Source: Patellaria atrata CBS 101060 (lineage: Eukaryota). From it: a stretch of 64,000 nt of DNA. Made by a program: the position numbers and the translations under genes. The DNA lies in the NCBI GenBank assembly GCA_010093705.1, contig MU006105.1, forward strand, positions 411,960-475,959, read 5' to 3'. The notes below the pieces were generated by a model that was not told the origin of the DNA, did no database searches, and saw nothing but the letters and a program-made list of their open reading frames with translations. Positions 1 through 20,471 of this stretch are shown here, in pieces (the stretch's first letter is position 1; the number at the start of each line of letters is the position of its first letter).

Positions 1-676
1 TCGTGACTTGATCCATAATTATATGAAAGATAGTCCTAAGTTTTCGCAAGTAAATATGACACTCGAGGGAGAGTTCTAAAGGGCGACATCATAGCAAGGT
101 ACAAAACCCGCAGTTTTCCTCCGATGAGGTAGAATGACATGCTCGGCAAAGTCTAAACCACATCCAGCCACCGAGTGCTAGTTTCCTAAATGAAGTTTCT
201 TAGTAATAGTTCTAACGGGAAGGAGCGGGCGCTCGTTAACGAGCAGACCCAGGAAAAAAAAGTTACCATATCAAAACAACTGACTTCAAGAAAATCAACT
301 TGACCAAGTGGAAATAATGAAGCGCGGAAATAACGAATCTGAAATCTGTGGTCCCACTTCTGATGTAAACGGATAGAATTATCATTGCAAGGAGTTAAAA
401 CTGGAAGCCCCTGAATTTGTTTGGCGTGGCTATGACACTTTCCTACAGCTTCAATCGTTTCTGAGTTATGGGACGATAATCCTCAATACTTCAGGATCTC
501 TCATTTTGTAAAATGTTTCGAGCGTATCGCATATACCATTCTACCGTGACTAACATATACAGTGTCAAATCTTAAGTCTATGGGAGTCAAAATAAGCTCT
601 TTATGTGAAGAACTACCAATGGATCTTATCTAATCTTTCCTTGTTTGATCTAGCTAGTTAGGCCAGTTGTGGCCAA

Positions 677-755
677 CAATACGTATCGATAAGGTATTAG
701 TATTCTCGGTATTTCATCAGTATTGTATCGAATACTGTAATACCTTAAAAATACT
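677..755. repeat. Left subterminal cluster of GTATT/AATAC pentamers of the hAT element
   Basis: About 8 copies in both orientations just inside the left TIR. hAT elements are known to carry short subterminal transposase-binding repeats. Confidence 0.7.
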
Positions 756-1063
756 CTTGGCATTCAAGGCTTTTCGATATTTTTTAGAACTTATCTAAAT
801 TATTCATACTTTTTTGAAGAATTTCATTGAGATAAAGATGCCTTCGTACGAAGCCATTACATGGCTATGAGTAATATGTACAGCTGTTCTAATGTGGAAG
901 GCACGAGGGCGTGCCTGCCTTCCCACCTGCCTACCTACCCACCTGCTAGTTTACATAAATATCTCTTCTTCTCTTTTGTTCTCCTCCTCGACCTCTGATT
1001 TAGCAACTCGAAGTGTAAGTGCTCAGCTCAAATCTATCGTACGAAGGCTAATCAGACTACAGC

Positions 1064-2052
1064 ATGGCAGATATGTAAGTACTTAATCATGGAAAAGTAG
1101 CTAAAGTCAAGAATAACATTAAAAAAACTCTTTTGTACAGAGAAGGGGAAAGAAGTACTCTTCCAATACTTACATAGTACACAAATTTCAACAGCTAACT
1201 GGCTGCTACATAAAAGAGAAATCAATGAAGAAGAACAAGAAATATTCTAAAAATGATAGCATACAGGGGAAAAACTAGATCGACATATAATGCAGGGAAT
1301 TGAAGAGCAAAGGATATAGTGGAGTTGGTTCAGTTTTTCTAATGCTTGGATTAGACTGCAAAGTTTGAACAACTGGGGAGCTTCAATCCTCAGACACTCT
1401 CACTAGACATATTATTACCCTAGAATAGGGATTTATGTAGATAGAAGAGTAGCGACATAGCCCAAGAGGCTGCATGCGCAGTATTGTAGATAATGCAATA
1501 CAATGGATTAAAAAAAAAAAAAAAAAGCAAGTAGTTCTCTACAACCCAGCGATCGCGCTTGCCGCTCAGGCAAACCGCAACCCAGTGCTACTCATAGCAC
1601 AGCAGCAACTGGCTCCGTGGTACCATAGCCCGCAGAGTAGAGCACTTCTGGCTGTCGGCGGGGGTGTTGATGTTGAGTTCGTACGGGGCTCCATCACGCC
1701 TCAGCAGATTGGATCTCATAGGCAGTCATATGTCAATGGGATCCTCATCCAGTCTCGTGGAGGTGATATTGATCCTTGTACGGCTTGTCGTACGAGAGGT
1801 TTTCGTCCCTTCCTTAGTTGTCGCCGCGCTGAGGTGCACTTTGGCGGAGCATGCGCCAACTGTAAATGGTGTGACCATGCAGCGCGCCGTTCCGTACGAG
1901 CTGGTGGACTAGATAAGCCTGCTTATGGAGACAGGCTGCTTGGACCTAGTCCAAGGGATGACAGAGCTGACGGTAGCGCCCCTGAGAATGCTATCACGCT
2001 GGGAGATGATGAGGAAGGGGCTACTCCCCAAAATGTTATAATCATTGTCTGA
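1064..2052 (+). pseudogene. DUF3716-like Cys-rich protein gene carried inside the hAT element, interrupted by a LINE fragment
   Basis: Removing 1082-1526 and one TSD copy restores ATG GCA GAT ATG CAA GTA GTT CTC TAC (MADMQVVLYNPAIAL...). The motif QSRG..DPCTAC..RPFLSC...FGGACANCKW resembles DUF3716. A probable 5'UTR intron (1015-1062, GTAAGT...GCTAAT...TACAG) ends 1 nt before the ATG. Confidence 0.7.
1082..1526 (+). mobile_element. 5'-truncated non-LTR retrotransposon (LINE-like) 3' end
   Basis: Ends in an A17 tail (1510-1526). Flanked by near-identical 7-bp repeats GTAAGTA (1075-1081) and GCAAGTA (1527-1533). Removing it restores the host reading frame. Confidence 0.7.
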
Positions 2053-2480
2053 GCAAAGCTTCGTACAAAGTTTTCTTTGGCGTTCTGATGTTCTGGCGTT
2101 CTGGTGTTCTGCTTTGCATAGCTATACAGGGCTGCTGGTAGCACTCAGACGTGATCTGTACCTTTATGTGGTGTCTAAGATCAGTAGCCATTAGGCGAAA
2201 CTAAGTAGATCATACGAATCTTTTAGTAAAACATCTGGTCTTGCCCAATGTTTGAGACATTCGGTATGTTCTAGCTCTCTTGAACTTAAGCGTGATCTTT
2301 CCCATGATACCGTACGACGAGCTGCTGAAAATACTCGTTCTGGTTCATCACTCATAGCTGGAATTGGGAGGATCTCAACTGCAAGTATAGATAGCCGTGG
2401 AAACCGAGCTCTTTGAGTATCAGTTAACCACCATTTAATAGGTGAAACGTCCCCAATATCGTACGGTTCTTGGTTAATAT

Positions 2481-2643
2481 TGTGAGCGGCCTCTAGTAAT
2501 TGTGTTCCAACTATCTAGTCCAGATGCTATCTACAATCAAGATGAAGGAGAAGTGAAGAGTCTGAGGGCAGGTTTGAGGGAAATATTACTGGCTGATCTT
2601 CGGATGTAGGGCATCCCATACCACTAGGCTCTAGCCTGGTACA
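2481..2643 (-). mobile_element. Solo LTR, family A (163 bp), nested in the hAT transposase
   Basis: TG...CA termini with 5-bp TSD AATAT (2476-2480, 2644-2648). Excision rejoins DEFEDYI/NQEPYD. An inverted copy lies at 15329-15492. The strand is given relative to that copy. Confidence 0.9.
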
Positions 2644-3361
2644 AATATAGTCTTCAAACTCATCACCACTCAAGGAAGTCTTATTAGACCACTCAATTTG
2701 ATTAAGAACACGTTCAAAATCAGTCATATTCTCAGATAGAGTCCTCTTTTCTTCGTACGACGCTGGTAATGGTACTAAATAGGTTTTATTCCAATCTTCC
2801 CAGTATAATTTAGCAAGCTTAATCATCTGCTCGGCTTTCCCTCTTTCTTTCTTCCAACCTTCCTTAATAATCTTCGTACGATAGTAAGGAGTAAAGATTG
2901 TCGCAAGAATATGGTAAGGTGAGGAAAGAAGTATAGAATAATACTTCTCGAAAAGCTGTAAAGCTTTATAAAGTTGAGGTCAAAAATCCTTCTTATAGGT
3001 ACGTTCATACTTTCCCCAAAGAATATTAAAGCCAAGCATCGTACGAAGTATCATATTAAATGATAGAGAATGGCCTTGATTTAGAAGCGTTGCCTCATGA
3101 AAGGGGCGAAGAATTAAATGGATCGTACGAAGCTTTTCCCAATCTTTATATGAAAGACAATCTTCTTTAAGATCACTATACTATCTCTTAATATATGAAT
3201 CGATTTCTTCTTCTTTACTTAGTGCAACATCTATCATAATATACCAGCTATTCCATCTCGTACGATTATTAAGTGGAATCATTCTCTCTGCTCTTGTAGT
3301 AAAGTCTTTTAAGTGACGTGTAGAGCTTCGAATATGAACCACAATATTATGAAGCTTTCCA

Positions 3362-3534
3362 TGTCACGGGTTAGACACGATAGGTATAAGTGCCTTGGAT
3401 GATCCAGCGGCTTAGTCATACTGTACTTTAGTAGAACAGTATATGCTGTCTCAACACTTTCTTTCCTTAAGTTTAAGCTTCATGCATATGTAGCAATATA
3501 CCTTTCAGCTTCCATCTAAGGTTGAGCCTTGACA
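3362..3534. mobile_element. Solo LTR, family B (173 bp), nested in the hAT transposase
   Basis: TGTCA...TGACA termini with 5-bp TSD TTCCA (3357-3361) / TTCTA (3535-3539). Excision restores RTVGSLGKLHNIVVHIR. Confidence 0.85.
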
Positions 3535-4712
3535 TTCTAAGTGACCCTACCGTACGAAAGGTTGACTGTCTCTGTTTTCTTAAGTCGGCTTGTCTTATCT
3601 CATAGTCCTCTGTTGATACTTCATGTGTAAGACTATTTAGCCCTTGAGATTCAGTTTATTCTTCAGCGTCGTACATCTCAATCAAGTCTAAATCTATCGT
3701 CCCAGCAAAGAGAAAGGTTTGTACAATCAAGTTGATAATATGGCCTATACATCGGATTCTTTGAGATGAATGGTTCCATACTAGATCTTACTCACTTGAA
3801 GATATTGACTAAGCAGCTGGCAAAGCTTATCATTCGTGGAAGCATTATCACCAATAATAGTACCAAGCCTTCGTACGATACCATAGTCTTGAAGAACTGG
3901 AAGGAGTACTTCAAGTTGTTCACTAGATGAATAGTTTCCTACTTCTTTAAGACCAAGTAATACTCTTTGAGGTACCTCTTCCGTACGATCAATATAATGC
4001 GCGACAATACTAAGGAGAAGTATCCGATTTGGGGAAGTCTAGATATCAAGTGAGATATGGATATTTGCAGGCGCAGATTGAAGTTACTTTCGTACGAGAT
4101 CTTTTTGGGAAGAGAAAAAAGCCGTTATTCTTTTTGAAATTGTTGAGTGTGAAGGTGGAATAAAGCTCGTTGACTGCGGGTTAAGAACTAGGCAAAATGC
4201 ACGAAACTCAGGCCATTCGACTATACGGAAGGGGAGTCTTCGTACGGTAATTAATTGAGATATTGCTTTATCAATAATATCTTGATTAAGAATCTTTTGT
4301 AACACGAGCTGATCTGGCTCATTCAATCCAGTATGCTCGCTTGACCGGTAAAAATCTAATAGTCTTTGGAAAGTGTCTTCCCCTATCTTCGTACGAGGCT
4401 CGTCTAGAGATATATTATGTATGTTAAGAAGATGCTTCTTGAAGTTTGTACTAATTATTGTACTATACGAACACTCGTATTTACACTCACAGATAGGCTT
4501 ATTTTGATTGTTTCGTGGGGGGTCTCCGGGGGTTTGTATACGCGTATGTTTCCAAAGAAGGGATCTTATTGGTCGTACGGCGGAAGATGATGGTTCTGAG
4601 GTAAAACTTATTATTGAATCAATTTCAAAAGCCATTATTGAGGAGTAGAGACCACTTTATCGTATATACGAAGAGTAAAATTTTGAATTGTGGGTTTAAT
4701 AATATTAAGCGA

Positions 4713-4793
4713 AGTATTATTAGGGTATTATTAAGGTATTTATCGATATCGATCCAATACAATACTAATCGGTATTTGATACTATTTAATACT
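4713..4793. repeat. Right subterminal cluster of GTATT/AATAC pentamers of the hAT element
   Basis: About 7 copies in both orientations just inside the right TIR, mirroring the left cluster. Confidence 0.7.
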
Positions 4794-4956
4794 GGAATTT
4801 TATTGGCCACACTGAGTTAGGCGCTACTGTTGATGCACAGACCATCTAAGTTGTCACCTTGAACCTTCACATCTCGACATTCACGAAACGCGCACTTTTT
4901 GCAGACTTGTGCTATTTGTTTACCCCACCAAATCTCGTATATTATAGCTTTTCGTC

Positions 4957-6590
4957 ATGGCCGCTGCAGTTTCTCCCTCAAACTCACCACGCCTTCCTAG
5001 CCCTCCACCAATGGCTGAAGATCAACTAGGCCCTAAGTCTCCAATGGCTGTGTCTACCGAAGAACATAATAAGCTACTGGGCGGTCCTCTCAATATCGAT
5101 GCTGGAGCTTCAAGAAGAATACGACCAGGCACAAAATCAGCGGACATATGCGAAGGCCCACCTCTGGTTGATATGGTAGAGGTAAGAAGAAACATCATCC
5201 CCTTCTCAACCAGAAAACGCTAATCCATCACTCATAGATCGAATCAGCATTTCAACTCTCCGAACATATTAAAGCCGTGCATGAGACTATTACACACCCC
5301 TCTTCCTCAGATAACACCGTTCCTGTCGATCGCGCAAGCGCGATACGCCTAGCCCACGCGCCAGATGGAGTAAACAAGAGCTTGTGGTTATATGAATTGT
5401 GTAGGTTTCTGACACAGAAAGCGAATATCATGGTGACTGCTCTATTTTCGGATGATCCACCATGTTCTGCACAGACCTGCTCTGAGATGCGCGCTTCGGA
5501 ATGGCAATACCTCTGCGCTGTCCACGATCCTCCAAAATCATGCTGTGCTATTGATTACTGCTGTCACACTCTCGATTGGGCCGCTCAAATCCTCACATCT
5601 GCGAAATCTTTTCCCAGTAGATTAGCGTTAGGTGGAGATTACAATACGGTAAATATGCAAGTTCGACACATCACGAATATCTTCAGGCGCGTATATCGCA
5701 TATTCGCACATGCATGGTTCCAGCATCGTGAGGTTTTCTGGAAAGTAGAGAATAGAACTGGACTCTATGTCTTATTCAAGAGCGTATGTGATGCTTACCA
5801 GCTCATTCCTGAGGATAACTACACGATCCCTCCTGAAGCTGAGGGAATCGAGGTTCCATCTGAGGAAGACCAGGTTCCAGTGATCCCGAAGAGCGAGCAA
5901 GAACCACAAATTGAACATGGAAAACCTGAACTGACACCTGCTGGCAATGACATTGTTGTCTCTGGACATACAACTAAGAGGCATAGGCACACTCCCTCCA
6001 GTAGTAACGTTGTTGCAACAGTTATCGAGGAAAACGAGGAAGAAGAACATGAAGAGAAGCGACCAGCAGCACAAACAGTGCAGACATCGGTACATGTTTC
6101 AGAATCCACGCTTCCCGATTCAGAGGTATTATCAGACACACAAGAAGCCAGTGAGCGTTCACAGTCTTATCCGAAGGAAGAATCAAAATCTCCAGAAATT
6201 GAGCTTGAAACTAGTGAAGTACCCACTGAGAACATAGAAGATAGGTCTACTGCAATTGAGGAAAGTACTCAAATTGAACCACTCAAGGAAGAAGCGCCTG
6301 AGGTCAAAGCTGATTCTGGCGAAGACTCTGCGGTCAATCTCGAGTTAGAACCCAATGCAGAAAAAGAATCGACCTCTACCGTTTCCCTAGAAGCTGCTTC
6401 CGAGTCTACGGTCAAAGAGAATACTGGAGACTCAGAGCCGAAGGTAGACGATTCGACCGTAGAGCAAAAGACCTCAGAGGAACCAAAGGAGACATCTGTA
6501 AAGGAAACAGCTGAAAAGAAAGAACATATTATGACTCCTGACGCTAGCGCCACAAGTACTGAAGAAGCTAGCAAGACAGTAACTGACTGA
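4957..6590 (+). CDS. MOB3: Mob1/phocein family protein (STRIPAK subunit MOB3)
   Basis: Exons 4957-5181 and 5238-6590, intron GTAAGA...CTAAT...CATAG. Phocein motifs WLYELCRF, YLCAVH, CCAIDYCCHTLD, FPSR, IFRRVYRIFAHAWFQHR, then a long acidic tail. Confidence 0.92.
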
Positions 6591-15137: not shown

Positions 15138-15328
15138 GCCCTATTGTTAGATGGTGGAGCTATCGGGGTGTTGATTCTTGTGGTAACCAGGGGTAGTGAG
15201 CTAGTCGCTTATACCACCACAATTACGGTATCGTCGTAACCTAGGGTTTCTAAACTAACATAACACTATCTTTAGTTCTTGTGTTGGTGCTATTTTCGTT
15301 ATTTTCTGAGACATAGATTTCATACTGT

Positions 15329-15492
15329 TGTAACAGGCTAGAGCCTAGTGGTATGAGCGCGCCCTGCATCCGAAGATCAGCCAGTAATATTTTCCTCAAA
15401 CCTGCCTTTAGACTCTTCTCTTCTTCTTTATCTTGATTGTAGATAGCATCTGGACTAGATAGTTGGAACACAATTACTAGAGGCCGCTCACA
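15329..15492 (+). mobile_element. Solo LTR, family A, second copy (164 bp)
   Basis: TGTAAC...CTCACA with 5-bp TSD ACTGT (15324-15328, 15493-15497). Roughly 90% identical by eye to the reverse complement of 2481-2643. Confidence 0.92.
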
Positions 15493-17534
15493 ACTGTTCC
15501 GTCCGTTTTAGTACACACCTGCAGTATATAACAGCTAGATAGAACCTCTCTTTTGAGAATCGAGCGACATATTCCATGCACCTGCAGATCCAGTTTATCT
15601 AATACCTATTCAAACGATTCTGAGCCTCGATCAAGTAATCTGAGTAATTTCGTGTCCCTTACAAGTAGGATTGTGTCCTGATTTAAAGGACGTCTCGAAC
15701 CGCTCATATATATCCAAATCCGAGCCCTCCATAAGGAAGATTGATTTGTCTAGAAGGAATTTCCAGGTCTGCGTAGTTCCATCAAATGCTAAGGTCCGTC
15801 CACGTAGTCTCGAACTTGACTAAAGTATCCTTCCTCTTAATAAGATAAACAATTTGACTATTAGTTGGGGTAAGGACATATTTGAGCGTTGTGAAAGACA
15901 TTATTAAAGATATAACTACGTACGTCCTATAAATACTTTTACAGTGCAGGATAGATGCTGCAGAGTAGTACTTTTTTTCAGTACGCTCTTTGATTTTGAG
16001 AATGTTATTGAAAATATATCTTTTGGGTTTTCAGATTAGTGGGAAGATAAATTTTTTTAAAGTAATTTATATGATAACACCAGAGCCTTACCGTGGTTCA
16101 AGTCACTTTGTCAATTCATAATGGAGCCGTGGTTGGAACATTGTTATATCTATACCTTCTTAACACAATGGTCAAATACACGAGACTTTCGATTAAAAAG
16201 TGCGATCACGTAACCATTATGAAGATTTCAAATTGTATTAACGTTAAACATTCTACGAATAGTATACCTAAATTTATACTGTTTTCACCTATCTGCTCCT
16301 CTAGCTTTTCTTTTATCATGCGTTTCTATCATCAATACAAGGTCCTGTTTCTCGCTGTCCTTGAGTTTGAATTGTTCCATTTCCTAACAGCTCTCTTCTT
16401 CTCCCAAAAGATTATTTACCCTTCTCAGTGGCAGCAAATATCCAACCCCTGATTACGGCATTAGGATTTCCCACTTTCAAATCACCCTATACTAGAGTTA
16501 ACATGTAAATTCTCGTGCTTATATGAACTCTACTAAATCAATCCCCATTCTCCATTCTCTACCCTCGTACTATAACCCTCAACTCTGCATAGTTGAAAAG
16601 CTCTACCAGTCTCGGCCGCAATCTTAACTATGCCCTACATCTCTGCTTTATCCTCCCTTACTTTCCACTCTGTAATAACTCGTTTTCCCGTCTACATATT
16701 CTCCTACAGATCTTCTTCTCCTATCAGGCCCTCTCTCTATGAACTCCCTACCCAACACCTCCTCTCCGACCAAAATCCCCTGGCCTCCTCACCTCACCCA
16801 CCTCATCTTCCCCAACCTCTCTACAGTTCCCATAACTCAGCAGACACTTACCAAATATCCCCCCAAAACACCTGCACCTCTCTGCGACACTATACCAACC
16901 CTCCAACCCTCGCGTCCCTTCATCGTCCCTCTCCAGACCCAAAACCAAACCCCCTTTCCCACCCCGCCAACACCTCCAATCCCCACCCCAATCAGCGCCA
17001 CCATTCACCCCGGGTGCGGTGGTCTCCTACAACCGCTTCATATTCCATGATCATCTCTATTGACACATAGATTCTGACCCTCGTCTCCCGTATCCCGCCA
17101 AAACACCACTACAACCCTAACTATCCCCAACTCTCAAAATTATAAACCAAACACCTAACACTACCATCACCTCGCCCAACGAAGCGACAGCGGACCTGCA
17201 AATTAGAAATTCCACAATCAAATGGATCACTATTCCTTGCATTCCCTATAATAGACTTAAGTTTAAAGAGGATTCGTCGGGATAGCAAGATTCACGATCA
17301 AGGACAGGGTATCAGAAGATGATGAAGTAGAGAGGTCCCTGTTCCTGTTCCGCCTGTTCCTGTTCCGGGGAGAGATATATACAAAACACATAATAGCATG
17401 AGAAAAGCCGCTTTCGCATCCCAAGTATCCCAAACAAGCGCAAAGACAATTCCACCCGTCCCTCCCAACCCAACCCAGTATTCCGAACAAAAGACCCATC
17501 CGAATCCCATCTCCGCCACTGCCCTCACCATCCC

Positions 17535-20471
17535 TCAACCACCCACAACCATTAACTCCGCGCCCACACCGGCAACATAACACACAACCCCGGCGCCAAG
17601 CACCAACCTAACAATCCTCCACGCCCTCCTTCTCCCCGCCTCTCCCTCCCCTCTGACCCCCGAAGACACCTCCTCAGTCCTCTTAACCCCCTCCCTATAA
17701 GGCGGCGGCGGCGGCAGAAAAGAATCATAATTCACGAACCCAGTCGGGGACGCGAAATTTCCAATTGGCGGGAGATGGAGAGGATATGCCGTCGTGCCGT
17801 CGATCGGGTTGAGGTATTTCTTCCTGTGCTGCACTTCACGGGCTACGTCCTGGACCTCGTCCGCCGCCTTCTCCGCTTCTCGTGCTTGCTTCTCCTTGTC
17901 GGTTTGGTTTTCGAGGTTGGGAGTTGGCTCAACAGGGGGAACCCATGATTCGGGTATGCGGAGCACGAGTTGGTGTTTCCCGGCCCAGATGATCTCGAAC
18001 GGGACGTCGGGGAGGCGTTTGATGAATACCTCCGGCTTGGCGAATTGCTGGAGCGCTTTTACTAGGTCGGTTGGTGTGGTTGGGTGGTGGGCCCTTGAGA
18101 ACTTGCGGGTGTTGCTCGTGCTGATGGCGCCGCTTTCGGGGTCGACGGTGATGCGGTAGACGTTGTAAGGATGGGATTTGGGCCTCGTGGGTTTATCTTC
18201 TATTTGAGTTGGAGCGGTAGTTGTTGGCGTGGTTGCTGATTGTACGAAAGTTTGCGTGGGTTCTGTAGGGTTGGTTGTGGAGGTTACTCCTTTCGGTTGT
18301 GGTTCAATTAATGCTCGATTCGTAGGTTCGGGCTCAGGGGCTTTGCTTGTAAATGTTGAAGCCTCCTTAATGTTTTGGTCCCGCAAATGAAGTGCCTTTA
18401 TTTTAACGAGAAACTCGTCAACCTTTTCTCTTGAGAGCGGTTCATTATCCACCTGTTCTACCATTTTACTCACGTTCTTCGTCAAATTTTCACTCATCTT
18501 CCCCAAGGAGTCTGCTTCGGTAGAGATATGCGGTGATTTCTCTCTAGATGCTAGATTCCGACTTTCAGCTCGCATCCGTTCCTCGTCCTCTCGGGTTCCT
18601 GAAAACCATTGCATATTTGGAAGTGCATAGGCCTGCGTATCAAATCGCTTCCAATTAGGATTAATGTCAGGTCTGTTCGTAACTGGACTATCATTTGAAA
18701 TTTCAGTATCTGCCGCTTTCTGCGGTTCGATCACAACGGTCTCAAGTTCCACATCCTCAGGCGGTTCCTGATGTGCCTTCTCAGATACCCTTTCAAGGGC
18801 TCCTCTTCTCTCGATCTTCTCTGATTCCGTCTCCTTCATATCTCTGGAAGTCTTCATCGATGCTCTAACATCACTGGGACGTAATAGATCGATATCATCC
18901 TCCCGTAGCTGTAGTTTTGGTCTTATATTGGTCTCTGCTTTACTACTAGCTGTAGAGTTCGTTCTGTCGAGACTAGTTTCAAGTACTGTATTCGAGTTCT
19001 CCCTGTTAATAGGAATGTTCAATCTTTGATGAACGAATTTGACAAGTGGACTCGGTTCTTTGCGGGTGGGAGGTTTGGATATCTCCTTTTCTTCGAGGGG
19101 AGCCTCGGATTTCTCCTTCTGTCTTTGCTCGTAGTCTTTATAAGCAAGCTCTTCTAACTCCTTAAACATAGACCATATAGACTGGTTACCATCGTCTTTG
19201 ACCGTGGGTACCTCAGTAGTTTCGGTCTTTGTAGAAGTTGTATAGCTTTCGTGATCTTCCATACCAGAGGAGACAGGTTCATAGTACCGCTCATTCATTT
19301 CATGAACATCCTTTATCTCGAAAGATTTATCGGAATTGGATTTTGTGTCCTTCTTTTGAGCTTGGACATCTGCCAGAGCTTCCGCTATTCCAGGAGTAAT
19401 GGAATTCGTCTGCCCTGAAGCTTGTGACGCATTGACTTTATCCGAATTCGGCTCCTCGACAAGCTGACTTGATTGTGTTTCGGATCTTTTGAGCTCATAA
19501 TAGTGATCCCTTATTTTGAAGTACCATGGTTCCAACTCTTTCTCGCACTGCCAAGTTCCTCTTTGAGTACGCTCAGCTGCTAATAACCATTTCTTCATTG
19601 CGGGTAAATCTTCAGATTCTATTATCTTTGGTGCATCTTCCATCAGGGACCTTGTGAGAGGATCTATGGTGTGTTTCGGTCTCAAAGGTTTGACGGGGAT
19701 GTCGATGGCTTCATTAGAGGTTTTCATTTCTGGTGCAGAGTCTATTTCAGGAGTGTCGGTACTCTTAATCACCATTCGGTTACTGACGGGATCGTATTCA
19801 AAACCATCAAGTCCAGATGATGAATCTTGGGTGGCACTTTGTGCCTGTCCAGTAGCCTTAACTCGAGGGTCCTCTTTTTCATTGTCACTATTCCTTCTCT
19901 CCACAGAGTCTTGATCAATCTTCTTATCCACTTCCACAGCTTTCCTCTTTCCCTCATTGAAGCTTGCCATCTGACTAATCCAACTTCCCAGTCCAAACGC
20001 CCCTAAGCCCTTCGTCTCCAACCGCTTTTCCCACTCCTCGCATTTCTTATTTAAATCATACGCCCGTTGTCTCCACAACTTTTCTCTCTTACTCAACTCA
20101 AAAGGAAAGTCCTTATCCCCATCTTCCCCTTTCGTACCCGGGACATAGGTTCCCGGCTTTATCCACCACTGGCTGGTCCTCCCACCTGGGCCGCACGCAT
20201 ACCAACCCCATCCTCGAGGTCCTCGCGGTTCTCGACGCTGTTCAAGTGCTTCTCGTAATTTAGTTTCGTCTCTACGGACGGATTTCTCGATGCGGGAGGT
20301 GAGGCGACTGAGGGGATCAATGTGACGGTTCCACCAAGAGAAGGAGCGAGCCTGGCGCCGAGGCAAGATGACAGTGAGAGAAGATCTGGGATGTAAGGTG
20401 GAAGTTCGGGAGATGCGGATGAGAGATGAGGAGACTTTGGTTCTAGCGCGAGGGAGATGGGAGACCGTCAT
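17535..20471 (-). CDS. Fungal hypothetical protein (978 aa) with a C-terminal membrane anchor, possibly mitochondrial
   Basis: Long intronless ORF. The R/S-rich, acid-free N-terminus resembles a presequence. Motifs YDPVSNRM, DDIDLLRPSDVRA and NPIDGT...GNFASPTGFVNY. Terminal hydrophobic segment. Confidence 0.8.
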   Translation of the reverse strand: MTVSHLPRARTKVSSSLIRISRTSTLHPRSSLTVILPRRQARSFSWWNRHIDPLSRLTSRIEKSVRRDETKLREALEQRREPRGPRGWGWYACGPGGRTSQWWIKPGTYVPGTKGEDGDKDFPFELSKREKLWRQRAYDLNKKCEEWEKRLETKGLGAFGLGSWISQMASFNEGKRKAVEVDKKIDQDSVERRNSDNEKEDPRVKATGQAQSATQDSSSGLDGFEYDPVSNRMVIKSTDTPEIDSAPEMKTSNEAIDIPVKPLRPKHTIDPLTRSLMEDAPKIIESEDLPAMKKWLLAAERTQRGTWQCEKELEPWYFKIRDHYYELKRSETQSSQLVEEPNSDKVNASQASGQTNSITPGIAEALADVQAQKKDTKSNSDKSFEIKDVHEMNERYYEPVSSGMEDHESYTTSTKTETTEVPTVKDDGNQSIWSMFKELEELAYKDYEQRQKEKSEAPLEEKEISKPPTRKEPSPLVKFVHQRLNIPINRENSNTVLETSLDRTNSTASSKAETNIRPKLQLREDDIDLLRPSDVRASMKTSRDMKETESEKIERRGALERVSEKAHQEPPEDVELETVVIEPQKAADTEISNDSPVTNRPDINPNWKRFDTQAYALPNMQWFSGTREDEERMRAESRNLASREKSPHISTEADSLGKMSENLTKNVSKMVEQVDNEPLSREKVDEFLVKIKALHLRDQNIKEASTFTSKAPEPEPTNRALIEPQPKGVTSTTNPTEPTQTFVQSATTPTTTAPTQIEDKPTRPKSHPYNVYRITVDPESGAISTSNTRKFSRAHHPTTPTDLVKALQQFAKPEVFIKRLPDVPFEIIWAGKHQLVLRIPESWVPPVEPTPNLENQTDKEKQAREAEKAADEVQDVAREVQHRKKYLNPIDGTTAYPLHLPPIGNFASPTGFVNYDSFLPPPPPYREGVKRTEEVSSGVRGEGEAGRRRAWRIVRLVLGAGVVCYVAGVGAELMVVGG

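Follow-up and report, generated by a model that had tools for sequence, protein, structure and literature searches.

A lattice of CGTACG palindromes through a fungal hAT transposon and its DUF3716-carrying relatives

The DNA analysed here, called the window, is a stretch of 64,000 nucleotides of Patellaria atrata CBS 101060 (assembly GCA_010093705.1, contig MU006105.1, positions 411,960 to 475,959 of the forward strand). Close to its start lies a hAT transposon whose interior is filled with copies of the palindrome CGTACG (Table 1). The element shows the marks by which hAT transposons are recognized, short terminal inverted repeats with a target-site duplication of 8 bp around them, and the terminal inverted repeats of three relatives (L060, L008, and L022) also start with CAG. 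The read-through translation of its transposase contains the hAT C-terminal dimerisation domain (PF05699; E = 1.2e-13; score 51.1 bits, cut-off 21.4), and this transposase has 124 homologues at E <= 1e-3. Convergent with the transposase gene is an accessory gene, whose product belongs to the Pfam family DUF3716 (PF12511; score 39.6 bits, cut-off 22; window positions 1546-2049) and is 95% identical to another Patellaria atrata protein. Three inserts are nested in the element. The first breaks the DUF3716 gene after codon 4, as is seen from the uninterrupted 95% identical protein, and the other two are skipped by related contigs that are about 90% identical to the window copy. Without inserts, the length of the element is comparable to that of its relatives (3.4-3.7 kb). 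The window element is a dead hAT copy, a relic that still bears the lattice.

Table 1. Features of the hAT element (positions in the window)
Feature	Position	Strand	Remarks
Left target-site duplication AGTTAGGC, 8 bp	656..663		same letters as 4815-4822
hAT transposon, 4151 bp (~3353 bp without the three nested inserts)	664..4814		terminal inverted repeats and target-site duplication
Terminal inverted repeats, beginning CAGTTGTGGCC / CAGTGTGGCC	from 664 and 4814		inverted repeats I2, I5
CGTACG lattice, 19 exact sites including 11 full octamers TCGTACGA	845..4579		decayed copies at 2062, 2211, 3670
DUF3716 accessory gene	1064..2052	+	codons 1-4 at 1064-1075, remainder at 1528-2052, insert 1 between
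Nested insert 1, ~452 bp	1076..1527	+	A-run at end; boundary uncertain by 1 base
hAT transposase pseudogene	2191..4635	-	frameshifts near 3785 and 3400, plus in-frame stops
Nested insert 2, 168 bp, small repeat	2477..2644		skipped by related contig; second copy found by blastn
Nested insert 3, 178 bp	3361..3538		skipped by related contig
Right target-site duplication AGTTAGGC, 8 bp	4815..4822		perfect match to left copy

A sequence-only reading of the window, made by a model, had listed 19 exact copies of CGTACG in the element, and all of them are present. It had put the number of copies elsewhere at about eight. Ten were counted in the other 59.8 kb. The 29 copies of the whole window compare with a mean of 6.15 (standard deviation 2.48, maximum 13) in 100 dinucleotide-preserving shuffles, none of which reached 29. 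CGTACG is the commonest hexamer of the element, in which Markov models of order 1, 2, and 3 give expectations of 0.31, 1.0, and 2.8 copies. Seventeen of the 19 sites are coding (14 in the transposase and three in the DUF3716 gene). When synonymous codons were shuffled, which preserves both the protein and its codon usage, 1.5 sites were expected in the four coding pieces that contain these 17, and no piece received more than four in its 2000 shuffles. The enrichment thus survives the Markov and codon-preserving backgrounds against which the reading had wished to see it checked. Direct reading also confirmed the longer palindrome CTTCGTACGAAG at 842-853 and three decayed variants (CGTACA at 2062, CATACG at 2211, and CGTACA at 3670). 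The nested inserts are free of the motif (no CGTACG in 798 bases). Once they are removed, sites are 84-193 bp apart with two exceptions, which are the gaps holding the decayed variants. The ends of the element are 181 and 235 bp away from the nearest CGTACG.

It had also been claimed that the motif is not a protein repeat. This is correct, but coding sites mostly lie on conserved residues, namely arginine-threonine (RT), valine-arginine (VR), and S/P-Y-E, so the motif is interwoven with the protein. The 14 transposase sites are on RT, VR, and S/P-Y-E/D codons, and those in the DUF3716 gene are on VR (1680 and 1893) and RT (1789). In the window, CGT-ACG encodes nine of the 11 RT dipeptides, GTA-CGR encodes all six VR dipeptides, and xCG-TAC-Gxx encodes two of the five possible x-Y-x triplets. 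Altogether, 17 of the 22 synonymous opportunities for CGTACG are used. Aligned relatives mostly have the same residues as the window at the places of the motif. For example, the threonine at site 3259 is found in 119 of 119 aligned relatives, and the arginine and threonine at site 2311 in 55 and 59 of 61. At more variable places, for example sites 3040, 3982, 4390, and 4574, relatives differ from the RT or VR of the window.

Relatives were represented by the best 80 of 403 confirmed loci, obtained from one metagenome scan with a transposase alignment. Thirty of these 80 hAT loci have at least three CGTACG per kb; the densest reach 26 sites in 2.8 kb, and one 3.6-kb element has 35. A set of 539 sites gives TCGTACGA as the consensus octamer; position -1 is T in 82% of them and position +1 is A in 79%. 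The outer flanks of this logo are symmetric, which fits a dimer on double-stranded DNA. Thirteen sites stand at conserved codon columns of the transposase alignment (RT, VR, and S/P-Y-E). In 20 motif-rich loci, 177 sites are found at these 13 columns and 57 at others, and a single locus (L057) has four conserved sites together with eight of its own. As a check, it had been suggested that density should be kept while positions turn over. Density is kept at 35-60% transposase identity, whereas the turnover is partial, 13 columns being conserved. In the transposase tree, motif-rich lineages occur in all parts and enclose the poor ones (18 state changes in 77 rows). The 21 intact motif-rich open reading frames (ORFs) contain 188 sites where 17.8 are expected and use 194 of 251 synonymous opportunities. 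Their 14 intact motif-poor counterparts contain 18 where 5.9 are expected and use 24 of 103. Opportunities per codon are about twice as frequent in the rich set, indicating that residue content has also been shaped.

Coding and non-coding DNA have similar site densities within single elements. The transposase part and the non-coding part have 17 sites in 2.1 kb and 13 in 1.1 kb in L060, 15 in 2.1 kb and 7 in 1.0 kb in L008, and 11 in 2.0 kb and 7 in 1.2 kb in L022. In these three elements, whose ends are defined, sites are found throughout the interior, 50-300 bp at each end are empty, and beyond the terminal repeats there are two sites in 11.2 kb. The even spacing seen in the window is a real property of the family, as sites are over-dispersed. 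In 20 loci, five of 355 gaps are shorter than 45 bp, where 90.7 are expected under uniform placement (minimum of 2000 simulations, 67). The summed coefficient of variation of the gaps is 8.5 against 18.3 expected; gaps are not independent, as homologous sites recur among loci, but the spacing test still holds within single loci. Gaps have a median of 142 bp, and among 509 gaps, 216 measure 118-153 bp. In genes as well as in spacers, a site recurs roughly every 100-170 bp.

The subterminal 180-240 bp of the window element have zero CGTACG and contain other repeats, AATACT/AGTATT and TCGATA, clustered at 683-757 and 4722-4782. Subterminal clusters of ATCGAT are found at 72-118 and 2278-2330 of L039 and at 19-70 and 2766-2859 of L066. 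These clusters are likely transposase-binding sites, separate from the CGTACG lattice. A replacement palindrome lattice was sought in motif-poor intact loci, and the candidates ATCGAT and TTGCAA turned out to be subterminal repeats.

Repeat-induced point mutation (RIP) could have created CGTACG from CGCACG or CGTGCG, in which case unmutated relatives should show these hexamers, as the sequence-only reading had pointed out. They do not. Pooled hexamers at the 13 conserved columns are CGTACG (356), CGTACA (69), TGTACG (43), TGTACA (20), and CGCACG (5), and therefore intact relatives of normal GC content carry the motif itself. Where the motif is lost, it is lost by CpG transitions away from CGTACG, as the counts of CGTACA and TGTACG show. 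Intact motif-poor relatives have assorted synonymous codons at the same residues, which is the look of no DNA-level constraint. Some heavily mutated copies keep the octamer (L076 has 17 stops and 15 exact sites, and L001 has 18 stops and 13 exact sites), because it contains neither CpA nor TpG and is hence out of reach of classic RIP. These two stop-riddled copies keep nearly all exact sites, and L053, L054, and L020 lose sites by CpG transitions, which suggests two inactivating mutation regimes in different hosts. The shuffles, the relatives at 35-60% identity, and the comparison with RIP all support the earlier idea that the motif is a DNA tag under selection throughout the element. CGTACG is very probably a selected cis-acting site array.

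Motif richness goes together with the accessory gene, which was scored in loci with at least 1.1 kb downstream of the transposase, plus three short elements. With the DUF3716 profile, the gene was located in the window and in 14 loci, each time downstream of the transposase. All 15 DUF3716-positive loci are motif-rich, and 15 of the 16 DUF3716-negative loci are motif-poor. L039, L049, and L066 are intact and short, have subterminal repeats just outside the ORF and no space for the gene, and contain no sites. L029, L031, and L050 are intact elements without the DUF3716 gene in which sites are decaying. A DUF3716 fragment upstream in L077 is too degenerate to show the motif. Eleven loci (L002, L007, L015, L019, L026, L036, L038, L039, L046, L049, and L074) have intact transposase ORFs, a GC content of 0.46-0.51, and no lattice. 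These higher-GC loci may be lineages running without the accessory system, or domesticated copies.

DUF3716 is a large family. The profile of the protein matches about 989 cluster representatives at E <= 1e-3, and PF12511 is matched by 100 of 100 aligned homologues. Named homologues are from Patellaria, Usnea, and Coccidioides (Dothideomycetes, Lecanoromycetes, and Eurotiomycetes). Six cysteines are 97-100% conserved with the spacing C-x2-C-x10-C-x10-C-x2-C-x8-C, and DUF3716 is probably a zinc domain. In the window copy and the 95% identical Patellaria protein, the sixth cysteine (residue 125, about 1915-1917; otherwise 98% conserved) is replaced by arginine, and both copies may be inactive for this reason. 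An AlphaFold model from 100 sequences has a predicted local distance difference test score (pLDDT) of 76 and is confident over residues 20-120; an earlier model from 16 sequences was poor (pLDDT 50). Prediction of a homodimer scored 0.00, which is evidence neither for nor against dimerisation. A search of the ESM Atlas gave one lead at 0.80, under the useful range. The cysteine spacing resembles the signature of the Zn2Cys6 binuclear cluster. Assignment to Zn2Cys6 was rejected, since none of the 100 members matches another Pfam family usefully and the PDB gave no match by sequence or fold. An analogy with the SQUAMOSA promoter-binding protein (SBP) domain of plants, which binds GTAC cores, was dropped as well, as H108 and H121 are not invariant and there is no fold match. 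DUF3716 genes are also reported as accessory to an unrelated, IS3EU-type transposon in Zymoseptoria (PMC8232023).

No description of a CGTACG lattice in transposons was found among the papers listed by the literature searches. A table of Candida Zcf32 sites obtained by SELEX (systematic ligand evolution through exponential enrichment) contains CGTACG and is unrelated. In bacteria, Chi, DNA uptake sequences (DUS/USS), and FtsK-orienting polar sequences (KOPS) are words that are dense in coding DNA by synonymous choice and are read by proteins. These words belong to host genomes and have known readers, whereas CGTACG is private to a eukaryotic transposon. The subterminal transposase-binding repeats of hAT elements such as Ac and Hermes are comparable in that they are short motifs repeated inside a hAT element and serve its own machinery. 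They are grouped at either end, inside the last few hundred bp. CGTACG, in contrast, shows no clustering near the ends, which it avoids, and occupies the interior.

The nearest documented system is VANC. VANC21 is encoded by VANDAL21, a Mutator-like transposon of Arabidopsis; it is reported to bind the motif YAGTATTAY, which is enriched in its own family, and to remove methylation (PMC5735166). Both systems have a DNA transposon with a non-transposase accessory gene, and a short motif that is enriched in its own family and rare elsewhere; the element is marked by motif density rather than by any one site. Like the VANC motif, the hAT lattice is dense in and specific to a family encoding an accessory protein. 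The VANC motifs described in the same report are non-coding, have one orientation, are often in tandem, and diverge fast between related families. Unlike these, CGTACG is a palindrome that codon choice has placed in coding DNA, that recurs at even intervals, and that is the same in deeply diverged elements; with 17 of 19 window sites coding and the palindrome over-dispersed, the lattice does not consist of non-coding tandem motifs of the same orientation. Binding and loss of silencing are demonstrated for VANC in that report, whereas for DUF3716 we infer both.

The octamer itself is known from another context. In Pseudocercospora fijiensis, repeats in the Pfcyp51 promoter have TCGTACGA as their palindromic core (PMC6637983, PMC8252799). 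As reported there, a larger number of copies (1-6) goes with higher expression, swapping the promoter led to more expression, and the authors raised possible involvement of a transposon. The Pfcyp51 core is identical to the hAT consensus of 539 sites, and P. fijiensis is a Dothideomycete, as is P. atrata. The arrangement is different: one to six tandem copies with a copy-number effect in a host promoter as reported, against 19-35 dispersed copies filling a transposon.

The data show enrichment of the motif, selection at the DNA level, a mixture of fixed and shifting positions, even spacing, restriction to the element, and joint occurrence with the accessory gene. These observations can be brought together as follows. 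The TCGTACGA lattice would be a set of sites bound by a protein that is dimeric and recognizes a specific DNA sequence, and purifying selection keeps it across the entire interior of an old fungal hAT clade that carries a DUF3716 gene. Sites in coding DNA arise by codon choice on RT, VR, and S/P-Y-E/D residues. Such residues are also placed at unconstrained positions, and sites in spacers are written freely. The outcome is about one site per 100-170 bp, with sites hardly ever less than 45 bp apart. The most likely binder would be the element's own DUF3716 protein with its six invariant cysteines, and the most likely purpose would be open, transcribed chromatin of the element, the lattice being a distributed activator or anti-silencing array. 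Taken as a whole, an explanation in which the lattice is bound by a dimeric factor, likely DUF3716, that keeps the element open or expressed is the one we favour, with some reserve. The sites are presumably bound by a protein. For DUF3716 as the binder of TCGTACGA, a role suggested by the context of its gene, the chances appear almost even, and an activating or anti-silencing role of the lattice is plausible at somewhat less than an even chance. It is possible, but doubtful, that DUF3716 is a new class of transposon-borne, zinc-dependent, sequence-specific DNA binders that have long co-evolved with the hAT clade across fungal classes, that hold the whole element open and transcribed from about one site per nucleosome length in its own genes, and that could also act as activators at the TCGTACGA repeats of the banana pathogen P. 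fijiensis; other DUF3716 transposons, such as REP9 of Zymoseptoria (reported in PMC8232023), may then have lattices of their own.

Several points weigh against the favoured explanation. Searches with the pLDDT-76 model gave nothing at E <= 0.001 in Foldseek and none of 48,161 chains at Z >= 2 in a fold comparison. The PDB searched by sequence gave a single chance match (E = 1.9), and Pfam at E <= 10 with 100 members gave only DUF3716 and no DNA-binding family. For the association with the accessory gene, only four contrasts are independent on the tree, and a sign test on them gives p = 0.125. Among the DUF3716-negative loci there are many degenerate copies, in which both features could decay together, and the flanks of most motif-poor intact loci are too short for scoring the gene. 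Many copies are heavily mutated (17-35 stops), and therefore the lattice gives no immunity to inactivation. Moreover, the octamer is identical in all lineages while accessory proteins diverge to 35-60% identity, and a conserved host factor would explain this no less well.

The main alternative is built on this last point. The sites would be bound by a conserved host transcription factor, the transposon having gathered activator sites, and DUF3716 would do another job. In a host promoter, the same octamer is reported to act positively and in dependence on its copy number (PMC6637983, PMC8252799). A homodimeric fungal zinc-finger regulator of sterol genes is reported to bind paired CGAA (PMC6420630), and TTCG-TA-CGAA holds inverted CGAA; in that report, however, the regulator is described for Sordariomycetes and Leotiomycetes only and its element is 16 bp. 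A host factor does not readily account for the co-occurrence of motif and accessory gene (rich in 15 of 15 loci with the gene against 1 of 16 without it) or for intact gene-less elements, in which sites are lost or being lost. Sites of such factors are also normally local to promoters, not spread throughout coding DNA. A host factor as the binder is rather unlikely on these grounds.

Another candidate binder is the N-terminal zinc finger of the transposase, which would bind internal sites and compact the element or assemble a transposition complex. hAT transposases do bind short repeated motifs in their own elements, as in Ac and Hermes, and CGTACG sites are confined to the element. But the subterminal 50-300 bp, the usual place of hAT transposase sites, lack CGTACG and have the other repeats already described (AATACT and TCGATA for the window element; in L039 and L066, ATCGAT), and intact transposase-only elements have no sites at all. 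Binding by the transposase is therefore improbable. It is still harder to credit that the signal acts without protein, either in RNA as a self-complementary tag on both transcripts or through intrinsic mechanics of DNA. The palindrome is identical in sense and antisense transcripts and its spacing is near nucleosome length, but density is equal in spacers near the ends of elements, which are not known to be transcribed, symmetric flanks are expected of a dimer on duplex DNA, and one 8-mer per ~140 bp would be unlikely to place nucleosomes by mechanics alone. Last, the motif could have been produced by mutation, through RIP or some other context-biased process, or by base composition. In favour of this are the lack of CpA and TpG in the octamer and its persistence in heavily mutated copies. 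A mutational origin is rejected, given the enrichment over Markov and codon-preserving shuffles, the intact normal-GC relatives with CGTACG, its decay away from the motif, the weak RIP indices of the window element (TA/AT 1.02 and (CA+TG)/(AC+GT) 1.08), and unrelated inserts and flanks that are motif-free.

Some other features were observed in the window and in related loci. Insert 1 resembles a retroposon because it terminates in an 18-base A-run. Insert 2 has a copy in opposite orientation at 15328-15493 with 92.8% identity, and this repeat of ~166-168 bp is probably a miniature mobile element. The gene adjoining the hAT element (about 4957-6000, + strand) may encode a protein of the Mob1/phocein family, judged by eye. 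Strong strand asymmetry is found at 16001-20000 of the window, with a GC skew of -0.365 at 16-18 kb and an AT skew of -0.284 at 18-20 kb. Dense simple repeats adjoin the transposase in two relatives, with 74 copies of GCTCTA in L052 and 30 of GCTGCT in L012.

A regulatory lattice within a transposon's own coding sequence means that selection at the DNA level was strong enough to fix codon choice. Over deep evolutionary time, this selection has taken up 77% of the available synonymous opportunities and has gone as far as shaping residue content. The CGTACG lattice is a simple sequence signature by which such elements can be found, and with its even, near-nucleosome spacing it lends itself to studies of how chromatin state depends on site density. 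A testable role is offered for DUF3716, which is a large family of fungi with no assigned function, and a link is proposed to a palindrome tied to over-expression of a gene in a crop pathogen. The lattice and its accessory protein are a candidate fungal counterpart to the anti-silencing systems of plant transposons.

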